Shown here: positions 22,696 through 26,115 of the stretch, one piece after another | Numbering within the stretch: the first letter of the stretch is position 1 | Layout of the letters: each line of letters starts with the position of its first letter | Assembly (NCBI GenBank): GCA_010015585.1 | Contig: ML975165.1 | DNA from: Eremomyces bilateralis CBS 781.70 | Taxonomy: Eukaryota | Length of the DNA: 64,000 nucleotides | Direction: 5' to 3' (one strand) | The notes under the pieces: generated by a model | The model's database searches: none | What the model saw: the letters and a program-made list of their open reading frames with translations, nothing else | Told to the model about the DNA's origin: nothing | Translations under genes and position numbers: made by a program

Positions 22696-22770
22696 TTCTC
22701 ATATTCAGGTTAAGGTAGGATCCTTGGCGGCTTGGCAATTTTTACTCCACCAACACGCGTCAGAACGCGC
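22696..22770 (+). repeat. Left terminal inverted repeat
   Basis: TTCTCATATTCAGGTTAAGGTAGGATCCTTGGCGGCTTGGCAATTTTTACTCCACCAACACGCGTCAGAACGCGC. Confidence 0.95.
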
Positions 22771-22963
22771 TTTTATCAATTATATCAATATCGCGCTTTT
22801 ATCTAGCCCATAATCATTGCTCTTAGGCTTCAAACATTTGTTGAAATCTTTATTTTCTACTATCGTAACACTATATGTTTTAATACTATAGTTACAGAAC
22901 TTGTTGAACTAAATCGCGTCAGGCTCGCGTCGTATCGCGTATTCCAAAGCACTATCTCGATCG

Positions 22964-24856
22964 ATGAACAACGAATACGACTCTGGAGAAGAAGCTGCAG
23001 TCGAAACTCTGTTAGGAATGGCCCATACGCGCGATCAATCAAACCGCAATATCCCGCCATCAAGTCCTCGTCATAGTGAATCCGAATTGGAATCCGATAT
23101 AGAAACGGATACACCATATTCTCGACGACGTAGACTCAGACGCAGGCAGATGCGAGTCGGCTTCGCGGATCCTCTACATCAAGACACACCAGATAACGTA
23201 GTGCAAGCAAGACTAGCACCAGCGGTTGGTCGTCGACCTATAAAAAAGGCAACAAAGTCGAATTCAAAAGGCAGCTCTACTAGTGATAACGGCAGAGCTG
23301 CTAGTTCGAAGACTACGAAATCCGCGAAGACCACAAAGAGGGCAGGGCCTACGAAGGCTAAGCCTGTAGCAGCAGCGAAGAAACGCAAGCAAACGAAAGC
23401 AGTCTCTTTTCCACCATCCACGCCGACTCCTGCCAGGGGGCGTACCTTTATCATTTCGGATAACGACGATAGTAGCGACGGCCAGGATGAGGTAGATTCT
23501 ACTGATGGTGTTGTTGAGTTACCTCGCAAGCGTCTGAAACGAGGTTCTGGTTTAGCAAATGTCCAAGGGTTTGGTACCGGATCTCAACCTGGGATATCAT
23601 CGCCTATTGCCAGCCCTGCTGCGAATTCAGCATCTCAATCAACCAATAAGATATACAATCTATTCGGCAAGACTATGAAGAACATCCTCACGCTCATTCC
23701 ATACCTTGATGGGCTAGCACTTCCGAAGAAAATGACAGCAGCGAGCCTTGTGGATATCAATCGCGAGAAGATTCTGGAGGTTGCGCAATCTATCGCCAAA
23801 TCACAAGCAATGAAGCGGTTTGAACCTCTCGTCTATCATCATGAGACGAAGGCTTCATTCTCTGCAGCAATGATTGATAGCCGAACGAAACCTGTGGTTG
23901 AGAACGACATTGATCTTAGTACTGATAACGACGCTAAAGAATTCCGCGCTGTTTTACACTATCAGTATCATGAACTCAACCTACAAAACCTCAAGATTAC
24001 CATTGAAGTTAAATATGGCACAACTTTCGAGCCATTACCGACTCCAGTCCCTATTCCCAGGCAATCGACAACTGCTGCATCTTCTGGCAGTACCCTATCT
24101 TTGGCGCATCCTCTTACTCCGGCGGTACAAGCGATTACCACCGCCAATACAGATAAGAGTGCGCTTGTGACTCAGATTACCCAGCGATGGAAGTGCACGT
24201 TGGGTTCACATCGGTGTCCTGCAAGGTCATTATATTGCTGGCCGAACCCACAGGCAGAAAATCGCCATATGGAGATATCTGATCGCATTACTAAGAACTG
24301 GGCTGAACTAATCCGCATATCTCCTACTCTTCACAGTATCGAAACACCTCCTGCCCCTATCCAGCAACAGCTTTTTACGTGGGACCAACAGAAACAAGCA
24401 CAAGAGGCCCGAAATACTTCCAAATCAAAGCGGTCTTCCACTGAGACTCTATCATCACAGCCAGGCTCTACCCAGAACTTCAACTTCGGCTTCCCATCTA
24501 TGGGTATGACGCCCTGGGGTATGCCGCCTACCACACCTATGGCAACTCAATTTCCAGTACCTCCCAGTTCTCCAGTATCATCAGTCGACGGCTTCACGGT
24601 CCGGGAGTTTTGTAGGTGGATAGGTCAGGGCCGGCCTGAAGCGCAAAGGGAAGAGTTGATCAAGGCAGGCGAGGACCTTGATAATGAAGGTTATACCATA
24701 GGCGATGCGAATCTGGAGGCTCGCAGAAATCCTATCCGTCTTGCTGAGAGGCTGAATATCAAGGATGGTTATCTTAAGAGCATCGGGTCAAAGAAGCTAT
24801 TCGAACGCTTTAAACGGTCGTTTATTAACCCTCCGGTCACTAGAGGGGGTGGCTAG
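22964..24856 (+). CDS. Transposon-encoded 630-aa protein of unknown function (basic NLS-like clusters, Cys/His motif, helical C-terminal domain)
   Basis: Uninterrupted single ORF wholly inside the TIRs. Contains RRRRLRRR, KKRK, RKRLKR and WKC-x6-C-x6-CW-x8-H...W...PP. Confidence 0.75.
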   Translation: MNNEYDSGEEAAVETLLGMAHTRDQSNRNIPPSSPRHSESELESDIETDTPYSRRRRLRRRQMRVGFADPLHQDTPDNVVQARLAPAVGRRPIKKATKSNSKGSSTSDNGRAASSKTTKSAKTTKRAGPTKAKPVAAAKKRKQTKAVSFPPSTPTPARGRTFIISDNDDSSDGQDEVDSTDGVVELPRKRLKRGSGLANVQGFGTGSQPGISSPIASPAANSASQSTNKIYNLFGKTMKNILTLIPYLDGLALPKKMTAASLVDINREKILEVAQSIAKSQAMKRFEPLVYHHETKASFSAAMIDSRTKPVVENDIDLSTDNDAKEFRAVLHYQYHELNLQNLKITIEVKYGTTFEPLPTPVPIPRQSTTAASSGSTLSLAHPLTPAVQAITTANTDKSALVTQITQRWKCTLGSHRCPARSLYCWPNPQAENRHMEISDRITKNWAELIRISPTLHSIETPPAPIQQQLFTWDQQKQAQEARNTSKSKRSSTETLSSQPGSTQNFNFGFPSMGMTPWGMPPTTPMATQFPVPPSSPVSSVDGFTVREFCRWIGQGRPEAQREELIKAGEDLDNEGYTIGDANLEARRNPIRLAERLNIKDGYLKSIGSKKLFERFKRSFINPPVTRGGG

Positions 24857-24892
24857 TAAACCATCGTGCCTTTTAAACGGTCTCGGATTTAT

Positions 24893-25937
24893 CTATAAAT
24901 TAATACCATGAACATTATATCCTGACTTCAGCCACAGCGCTTGATGGTTTGTCCGGTCAGTAAAAGCAATACATGCTGCCTTTAGAAACTCTACAAACGC
25001 CGCCTCATAGCCTTCCCTAAACTCCGGAAGCAAATCATCATTCCGCTTCATCCAGCTTTTTAAGACATGGAACGAGGGCTCAATGGGATTTAAGTCTGGC
25101 GAGTATGGAGGCAAGTATTTAAGAAGAACACCCTTAGCGTCGCATAATTGGCGAATACCCTACTACTTTGTAAGTTTATATGATAGCCAGGCTAAGACAG
25201 AAGACCTACCGTAATGCGATGAGTACTGCAGTTATCCATAATCAGAATAGACCGCGGACCAGGGAATGGATTCATTTTCGGCAAAACGCATTCCTGAAGC
25301 CATTGTTTAAACATCTCTCNNNNNNNNNNNNNNNNNNNNNNNNNNNNNNNNNNNNNNNNNNNNNNNNNNNNNNNNNNNNNNNNNNNNNNNNNNNNNNNNN
25401 NNNNNNNNNNNNNNNNNNNNNNNNNNNNNNNNNNNNNNNNNNNNNNNNNNNNNNNNNNNNNNNNNNNNNNNNNNNNNNNNNNNNNNNNNNNNNNNNNNNN
25501 NNNNNNNNNNNNNNNNNNNNNNNNNNNNNNNNNNNNNNNNNNNNNNNNNNNNNNNNNNNNNNNNNNNNNNNNNNNNNNNNNNNNNNNNNGACTGATGGTA
25601 GGCTGGCTGACCCAGATAGACCAGTTGTCCCAGAGGAAGTACTGAAGTTCGTCCTGATATATCCCTGGCCGCATCAGAAGCTGTGTCTCGAGATCGACAT
25701 ACATTGCGGGGGTAACAATAGGTCTAGGACCAGGGCGACGCGTCCTTATGGCGTAAATGGTCCCAGTCTCGCTCCATCGCTTCCTTAATCTCGTCATTGT
25801 ATTCTTGTTTATACTCGTTGCGGCGATTATGTGCATATTGACTTGTCCAGCGTTGAGACGGTCTCTATGTCGCGTAAAGTCGCATCTGAGATCTGAGACC
25901 TGGTAGCTGGGGGCTGGAAAGGAGGCATGGCTACCAT
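24893..25937 (-). CDS. Tc1-like DD34E transposase (one intron; partly in N-gap; apparent 5' frameshift)
   Basis: HTH region RPGIYQDELQYFLWDNWSIWVSQPTIS. ILIMDNCSTHRIT joins through a 50-nt intron (25160-25209) to GIRQLCDAKGVLLKYLPPYSPDLNPIE, giving 34 residues between D and E. The first catalytic D is hidden by Ns. ATG 25937/25928 is out of frame with the main ORF by one base near 25862. Confidence 0.88.
25320..25588. other. Assembly gap (269 N) inside the transposase
   Basis: Run of N. Confidence 1.
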
Positions 25938-26040
25938 CTAAATAGATAAGTAGGTGTTTGCTGTCAATAGCTCCTCAAAAATACCTAAATTGATAAAGTA
26001 ATGAACGTGGTGGTTGCTGCGTTGATATAATTGATGAAAT

Positions 26041-26115
26041 GCGCGTTCTGACGCGTGTTGGTGGAGTAAAAATTGCCAAGCCGCCAAGGATCCTACCTTA
26101 ACCTGAATATGAGAA
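26041..26115 (-). repeat. Right terminal inverted repeat
   Basis: Exact reverse complement of 22696-22770. Confidence 0.95.

Follow-up and report, generated by a model that had tools for sequence, protein, structure and literature searches.

Tc1/mariner elements are the textbook minimal transposon: they canonically consist of a single gene between two repeats, span approximately 1.3–2 kb and form the basis of widely used gene-transfer tools. Here, we describe a 3,420-bp element of the IS630/Tc1/mariner (ITm) superfamily, located at positions 22696–26115 of a 64,000-nt stretch (the window) of contig ML975165.1, assembly GCA_010015585.1, from Eremomyces bilateralis CBS 781.70, a culturable ascomycete living in soil. 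Besides a transposase gene on the minus strand, the element carries a convergent open reading frame (ORF) on the plus strand, termed ORF2. We conclude that this is a transcribed, multi-copy, two-gene Tc1-like transposon, and that its second gene defines an unannotated family.

Two-gene transposons are known from other superfamilies. PIF/Harbinger elements encode a DDE_Tnp_4-type transposase and a Myb/SANT-like second protein and produce 3-bp target-site duplications (TSDs). The element resembles them in being a cut-and-paste transposon with a transposase and a second, element-encoded non-transposase protein, and they serve as the working analogy for ORF2. Membership of PIF/Harbinger was rejected, since only DDE_3 and DDE_1 matches and a TA duplication were found here, and neither a Myb nor any other Pfam match in ORF2. 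MuDR of maize has the convergent genes mudrA and mudrB, a Mutator transposase, 9-bp TSDs and terminal inverted repeats (TIRs) of approximately 200 bp. The element shares with MuDR a convergent gene pair in which either gene begins inside a long TIR, whereas MuDR belongs to the Mutator superfamily and its protein MURB is unrelated to ORF2.

Within the ITm superfamily, a second gene is not wholly without precedent either, as excerpts of two papers indicate. ITm elements are described there as able to carry additional ORFs, and the TBE and Tec elements of ciliates have three; the extra ORFs comprise a recombinase, a zinc-finger protein and unknowns, and the TIRs of Tec measure approximately 700 bp (PMC7325037). 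TBE1 and Tec thus share ORFs beside the transposase with the element described here but are ciliate germline elements, and no search in this study returned any similarity of ORF2 to TBE1 or Tec proteins. The closest precedent, going by the excerpted description, is formed by Dici1 and Dici2 of the yeast Diutina catenulata, multi-copy and active ITm elements of 4.0–4.2 kb with a TA duplication, a DD34E transposase and three coding sequences (CDS), the latter being called unusual by the authors for a typically single-transposase superfamily (PMC13469147). The three CDS are an orphan of 143–146 amino acids (aa), a central transposase of 473–477 aa and a degenerate transposase relic; transposases of the Dici family range from 432 to 478 aa, and the TIRs of Dici1 and Dici2 are 8 or 33 bp long and start with CAGTCGGT (PMC13469147). 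Both cases are fungal, TA-duplicating, multi-copy ITm elements with more than one CDS and DD34E, which corresponds here to a spacing of 34 residues between the second D and the E. In contrast to Dici, the element of E. bilateralis has two convergent genes, a transposase of approximately 331 aa and 75-bp TIRs starting with TTCTCATA, and its second gene encodes a 630-aa non-transposase protein with homologs of its own. Membership of the Dici family was rejected because transposase length and TIRs do not fit, a comparison made with the published description rather than with sequences. Single-gene fungal Tc1-like elements, e.g., that of Saitoella complicata (transposase P0037), agree with the present one in DDE_3, the catalytic motif LPPYSPDLNPIE in this domain, the 34-residue spacing, TA and TIRs, whereas the latter differs in being 3.4 kb long, in having a second gene and in the two spliceosomal introns of its transposase transcript. 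Excerpts of a survey of fungal cut-and-paste transposons mention no second ORF for Tc1/mariner (PMC5751038), and, for filamentous fungi, the open literature yielded no Tc1-like element with two genes of which one encodes a non-transposase partner, Repbase and subscription journals being outside this scope.

The element is bounded by the sole inverted repeat of at least 20 nt between positions 22000 and 27000, with arms at 22694–22774 and 26037–26117 (81 nt, 99% complementary). Compared end to end from 22696, the TIRs match perfectly over 75 nt and then imperfectly out to approximately 93 nt (79 nt at 99%). A 28-nt TIR word occurs at both element ends only in the 64-kb window, which contains one copy, and two matches were obtained in none of 100 shuffles. 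Directly outside of both ends stands TA (...GGAGA-TA / element / TA-GAAAA); TA duplication, TIRs and a DDE_3 domain, three of the marks of the ITm superfamily, are present. From the respective element end to the ATG, the distance is 268 nt for ORF2 and 178 nt for the transposase, and approximately 84% of the element is coding. An earlier reading, made from the sequence only, had claimed perfect 75-bp TIRs, TA on both flanks, gene starts approximately 180–270 bp inside the TIR ends, stop codons 36 nt apart, an almost fully coding element and an uninterrupted 1.9-kb plus-strand ORF; all of these claims were confirmed (coordinates in Table 1).

Three sequencing runs were compared with the window in the form of Logan contigs. 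X1 and X3 are DNA from one sample; the depth of such contigs is a rough guide only, and strand is not given. While the flanks have depths of 232 and 219 in X1 and of 156 and 153 in X3, the summed depth per bin of the element, outside a stretch of N bases, is 554–2040 (X1) and 291–958 (X3). The element splits into many short variant contigs, single ones inside ORF2 reaching 550–764 in X1. In both runs, the excess of ORF2 over the flanks is several-fold, the same as for the TIRs and the transposase gene. We conclude that this genome harbors the family, and ORF2 with it, in multiple copies; as read from depth, the copies amount to a handful. Furthermore, loose contig ends lead into two different left flanks (22692/22693) and two different right flanks (26117/26118), diverging just outside the TA that adjoins the TIR, and represent other insertions of the element.

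Not all copies are intact. Joints 23172→23498 and 24160→24430 were present in both DNA runs and are internal-deletion derivatives in which ORF2 is damaged, and a variant at about single-copy depth has 1–2-nt deletions in both genes. Decayed copies are as expected of a transposon family. Concerning the question raised by the sequence-only reading, how many copies exist and whether they always enclose ORF2, the several-fold contig depth points to further copies with ORF2, and these deletion derivatives exist as well. In all three runs, a contig matches the window from 22930 rightwards (34 nt before the ATG of ORF2) and continues leftwards into at least 255 nt of unrelated sequence, the last 30 nt of this unrelated end being absent from the window. 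Truncation or rearrangement of a copy could account for this contig, as could another upstream region in front of ORF2. In run X2 only, 53 nt upstream of ORF2 (22869–22923) are replaced by three letters; the replaced stretch has non-canonical ends (AC..AG), and another copy with an indel at this place is the probable source.

Run X2 has no RNA record, and its RNA nature rests on two spliced joints. The joints 25158→25209 (cut +1) and 25937→25985 are unique to X2 and read CT..AC on the plus strand, i.e., GT..AG on the minus strand; the first equals exactly the 50-nt coding intron that had been predicted for the transposase gene. The transposase gene is thus transcribed and spliced. A 2,025-nt contig of X2 (22940–24964) spans the whole of ORF2 and enters the transposase coding region by 71 nt. 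It differs from the window by 20 substitutions without any gap and is, therefore, derived from a sibling copy. Of these differences, 18 fall into ORF2 (13 non-synonymous, five synonymous, no stop codon) and two, both synonymous, into the transposase gene. Both genes are present in RNA, where the ORF2 contig could stem from either strand. Two further contigs of this run touch the element ends. One of 1,176 nt (21547–22722, depth 137.5) spans part of the left flank and the outermost 27 nt of the left TIR, and may reflect read-through or a transcript initiated within the element. The other, 4,745 nt long at a depth of 265, contains, in spliced form, the 5′ portion of a sibling transposase gene (25699–26117) with a 10-nt deletion at 26044, a TIR and then more than 4 kb of an unrelated locus; it looks like a chimeric or read-through transcript.

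Since depth is multi-copy across ORF2, sibling insertions are seen at TA and TIR, and a sibling ORF2 is found in RNA, ORF2 is part of the mobile unit. The best explanation of the locus is that the window holds one copy of a small, recently active 3.4-kb cut-and-paste family of the ITm superfamily, in which ORF2 is an element-borne gene and not a host gene.

The length of ORF2 clearly exceeds chance: when this DNA was shuffled 500 times, the longest ORF had a mean of 89 aa and a maximum of 201 aa, compared to 630 aa observed. In the public annotation, the locus is represented by a hypothetical protein of 407 aa (NCBI, E. bilateralis CBS 781.70; here P0001), which is identical to residues 1–400 of ORF2 and then ends differently. 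This end is reproduced by assuming a 95-nt GT..AG intron at 24159–24253, which shifts the frame and removes the conserved Cys3-His and SAM-like parts described below. No joint for this putative intron was reported in the RNA run X2. Because the RNA contig is colinear with the 630-aa frame and the stretch removed contains the most conserved motif of the family, the 630-aa reading is preferred; the public model is probably wrong. In consequence of this model, ORF2 appears in public annotation as a truncated host gene, and comparable gene families carried by transposons are easily overlooked.

Protein databases were searched for homologs of ORF2. No Pfam family was found at E-values up to 1, and a word-indexed protein search gave nothing beyond P0001 of the same genome. 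An exhaustive HMMER search of 1.84 billion representatives returned nine proteins at E ≤0.001, namely the self match, one repetitive protein, which was discounted because it matches in 10 short stretches, and seven homologs (P0002, P0003, P0004, P0005, P0007, P0008 and P0009; E-values of 2e-38 to 8e-6). Identities are 27–38% over the matched stretches, and P0003 (616 aa, aligned to ORF2 residues 65–619) is the sole full-length homolog. All seven originate from metagenome, Logan or ENA assemblies without a protein name and seem, from source names and record types, to be ORF calls on unmasked sequence; the longest contig measures 1.3–8.3 kb for six of them, and P0007 (ENA) lies on a contig of 101,649 nt. 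In P0007, a DUF7924 fragment (E-value of 2e-20, profile positions 94–145 of 225) precedes the homologous part, which may be a fusion or an artefact of the gene model. In the alignment of all eight sequences, C411, C418, C425, H435, P463 and A568 are invariant, giving a core motif C-x6-C-x6-CW-x9-H. Preservation of the architecture and of the four Cys/His residues at 27–38% identity points to long-term purifying selection somewhere, and, judged by sequence, ORF2 belongs to a small, unannotated conserved protein family.

Had ORF2 been a syntenic host gene, the sequence-only reading would have failed; neither HMMER nor the word-indexed search found an orthologue in named fungal proteomes besides this genome's own model. 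Homologs which are sparse and divergent, with no curated proteome but its own, are what would be expected of a transposon gene and not of a conserved host gene. Pattern scans of metagenome and viral contigs for loci with ORF2 homologs produced matches, none of which was confirmed by tblastn. A profile search of PDB with ORF2 returned only chance-level matches to Lon protease (E ≥0.026), and in an Atlas search the nearest clusters were fungal proteins without name (0.91–0.92), to be taken as a lead only.

In order to find hints of a function, the structure of ORF2 was considered. The N-terminal part of approximately 235 aa, which aligns with the full-length homolog P0003 only, is probably disordered, and its four basic clusters look like nuclear localization signals (NLS). 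An AlphaFold model of residues 221–630, built on nine sequences, has a mean predicted local distance difference test score (pLDDT) of 64 and three folded parts. For residues 236–354, the best match with VIA-align is the PB1 entry 4mjs (Z 8.2, root-mean-square deviation 3.1, 86 aligned residues; best Z-scores of 7–8 are stated to be common with this tool), ranks 1–5 are all PB1, and the best Foldseek match is also a beta-grasp (E-value of 4.7e-3). The helical Cys3-His domain reaches a pLDDT of 78 when folded alone and, in this form, gave neither a VIA-align match at Z ≥5 nor a Foldseek match at E ≤0.001. For residues 542–620, VIA-align weakly matched the SAM domains of Sans, SARM1 and TIR-1 (Z 5.0–5.4), with helix-hairpin-helix domains of DNA polymerases at similar Z; an Atlas SAM cluster scored 0.83, again a lead only. 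No Pfam signature of PB1, SAM_1 or SAM_2 was found in ORF2, and the designations PB1-like and SAM-like are leads taken from the predicted model. A two-copy model of residues 221–630, computed without controls, had a self-association score of 0.01.

The transposase gene runs convergently to ORF2 on the minus strand, from an ATG at 25937 to a stop codon at 24895–24893. Pfam assigns its last exon to DDE_3 (E-value of 1.7e-10, 41.3 bits against a cut-off of 28.6), and shorter pieces of the gene show weak matches to DDE_3, DDE_1 and HTH_32. The latter match, a helix-turn-helix (HTH) family, stays below the cut-off of 33.7 (16.3 bits, E-value of 0.015); the corresponding region lines up with the HTH portion of relatives, the frame being broken in the window copy. 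Aligned with the DDE_3 proteins P0013, P0015 and P0037, the second D (IMDN) and the E (NPIE) of the catalytic triad are in place and, after splicing, 34 residues apart as counted by hand, whereas the expected first D falls into 270 N bases (25320–25589). By eye, no ATG was seen in the exon upstream of the 5′ untranslated region (UTR) intron.

From the ATG at 25937, the frame of the window copy closes after 36 codons and a long frame resumes one base off. All contigs which cover the site have an extra base after 25862 (874/874, 265/265 and 544/544 by depth in the three runs), and by frame arithmetic this base brings the short N-terminal frame and the long one into register. The window copy has, therefore, either a private 1-nt deletion or an assembly error at that base; contigs drop rare variants, so that both cases look alike near 25862. 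Owing to the frameshift, this copy probably cannot make a full transposase; the intact protein is predicted to have approximately 331 aa (243 + 88 codons). Accordingly, of the intron-containing DD34E transposase which the sequence-only reading had claimed, the minus strand, DDE_3, the 34-residue spacing and the intron stand, while the first D lies within the N stretch and the window copy is frameshifted. A search with the last exon, restricted to proteins longer than 154 aa, returned 61 proteins at E ≤0.001, all with DDE_3. The closest relatives are 51–52% identical over 86–88% of the query, with higher identities reached in shorter matches, and the Tc1-like transposase P0037 is 40% identical. 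By sequence comparison, this transposase family appears to be without a close described relative in the protein collection searched.

How ORF2 might act can be outlined as follows. Each full-length copy would provide two convergent genes which start just inside long TIRs. Intact transposase would be supplied by sibling copies, on which the frameshifted window copy would depend, and ORF2 would assist the element in trans as an accessory factor. Its basic tail, its two domains of the self-association type and its putative zinc knuckle suggest a multimerizing nuclear protein that binds nucleic acid or transposase. We propose that ORF2 is nuclear, may bind the element ends and/or the transposase, and may self-associate through its PB1-like and SAM-like modules. 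It could bridge the two TIRs, which are unusually long, and help to assemble or restrain a paired-end complex there, a role which would liken it to the Myb-like partner of PIF/Harbinger transposases; or else it could regulate the activity of the transposase.

On balance, we lean towards ORF2 being an accessory protein of the element, a reading which includes the general claim that it is an integral element gene. The sequence-only reading had called ORF2 a dedicated accessory factor rather than incidental cargo; membership in the element is borne out by depth, sibling insertions, the RNA contig and the homologs, and the accessory role is plausible but unproven. Several points weigh against such a role. 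The pairing of ORF2 with a transposase is known from this genome alone, and none of the 61 transposase relatives has a longest contig equal in length to that of an ORF2 homolog, a comparison which is uninformative, as an exon-split transposase shorter than 154 aa escapes it. Binding to DNA or transposase is proposed from the predicted domain make-up, and the domain matches are middling (Z 8.2 and approximately 5) without a Pfam family. Contig depth is not a copy number, and the contigs carry no RNA strand. Finally, the ratio of non-synonymous to synonymous substitution rates (dN/dS) of ORF2 between the two copies is 0.82, not different from 1 (p 0.44). A ratio of about 1 had been named in advance as speaking against the accessory reading; since transposon copies drift neutrally after insertion, dN/dS between such paralogous copies within one genome is no test of function.

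A bolder version holds that ORF2 and its seven homologs mark an unannotated two-component Tc1-like lineage in which a polymerizing partner with PB1-like and SAM-like domains and the Cys3-His knuckle is an obligatory co-factor of the transposase, e.g., in TIR synapsis or nuclear delivery. We regard this version as doubtful; a dedicated partner across a lineage is plausible but unproven. If true, ORF2 would be the first such partner in the ITm superfamily, in parallel to the Myb-like partner of PIF/Harbinger.

Alternatively, ORF2 might be a passenger, either a captured gene or an orphan frame which arose inside the element, copied and transcribed without any role in transposition. DNA transposons of fungi and plants are known to capture genes, for instance Ant1 of Aspergillus niger, with part of amyA, and Pack-MULEs. 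The dN/dS of approximately 0.8 between copies would fit a passenger, the functional link to transposition is drawn by inference only, and the extra CDS of Dici, as excerpted, are an orphan and a dead transposase (PMC13469147). However, the exhaustive search revealed, among named fungal proteomes, neither a host-gene source nor an orthologue, the full architecture with its four invariant Cys/His residues has been kept among diverged homologs, and ORF2 forms the mirror image of the transposase gene in a compact, mostly coding element. We therefore consider a passenger unlikely.

Less probable still is that ORF2 acts as a counter-defence or regulatory factor on host silencing or chromatin at element copies, as VANC, the counter-silencing factor of VANDAL Mutator elements, would suggest by analogy. 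ORF2 is basic with NLS-like clusters, and PB1 and SAM are typical head-to-tail polymerizing modules of chromatin regulators; VEL accessory proteins of Polycomb silencing, according to an excerpt, polymerize in this manner (PMC7614096). Moreover, the 3′ ends of the two genes converge and the ORF2 RNA contig reaches into the transposase gene, an arrangement that could feed antisense regulation. On the other hand, ORF2 has no sequence similarity to known anti-silencing factors, the fold matches are weak and the RNA contigs are without strand. A mere local accident, i.e., a chance ORF or a host gene with a Tc1 element on one side and a stray TIR on the other, would agree with the single copy in the window and with the public annotation as an ordinary hypothetical gene, but is contradicted by multi-copy depth and variant contigs over ORF2 in two DNA runs, by perfect TIRs with TA on both sides, by an ORF more than 400 codons longer than any from the shuffles and by homologs down to E 2e-38, and is highly improbable.

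With ORF2 as an accessory protein of the element, a lineage in which a second conserved gene is retained and transcribed would demonstrate that ITm elements can evolve accessory functions, like Harbinger, Mutator and CACTA. At 3.4 kb, seemingly recently active and in a culturable fungus, the element offers a tractable system for the function of such a partner.

Table 1. Features of the two-gene element and its immediate borders (positions in the window)
Feature	Position	Strand	Basis or remark
Left TA, presumed target-site duplication	22694-22695	.	sequence; sibling-copy contigs diverge 22692/22693, TA kept
Left TIR, perfect 75 nt, imperfect extension to ~22788	22696-22770	+	inverted-repeat comparison
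ORF2, 630 aa + stop, uninterrupted	22964-24856	+	ORF call; no Pfam family; seven homologs
ORF2, basic, low-complexity N-terminal part, aa 1-235; four basic clusters (aa 54, 90, 139, 188)	22964-23668	+	pI (isoelectric point) 10.2
ORF2, PB1-like beta-grasp domain, aa 236-354	23669-24025	+	model pLDDT ~62-78
ORF2, helical domain with invariant C411-x6-C418-x6-C425-W-x9-H435 knuckle, aa 386-490	24119-24433	+	8/8 sequences
ORF2, SAM-like helical bundle, aa 542-620	24587-24823	+	pLDDT 77-88
Spacer, 36 nt, separating the convergent stop codons	24857-24892	.	sequence
Transposase, last exon, 88 aa + stop, bears E of the triad	25159-24893	-	DDE_3 match; alignment with DDE_3 proteins
Transposase, coding intron, GT..AG, 50 nt, phase 0	25209-25160	-	predicted from frames; joint in run X2
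Transposase, first coding exon (HTH region + second D)	25937-25210	-	frames, Pfam, alignment, contigs
Transposase, 5′UTR intron, GT..AG, 47 nt, ends directly before ATG 25937	25984-25938	-	joint in run X2
Right TIR, perfect 75 nt	26041-26115	-	inverted-repeat comparison
Right TA, presumed target-site duplication	26116-26117	.	sequence; sibling-copy contigs diverge 26117/26118

A second run of N bases in the window (49617–49663, 47 bases) lies far from the element in an ORF (49028–50071) without Pfam match. The insertion site itself is intergenic, and the host genes are undisrupted. To the left, an AMP deaminase gene on the minus strand (18385–21176 plus further exons) faces the element with its 5′ side. 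On the right, a gene for a protein with DUF3659 repeats (26925–31754), also on the minus strand, has its 3′ end towards the element; its frame of 1,609 aa comprises 14 DUF3659 repeats and a DUF6987 domain.

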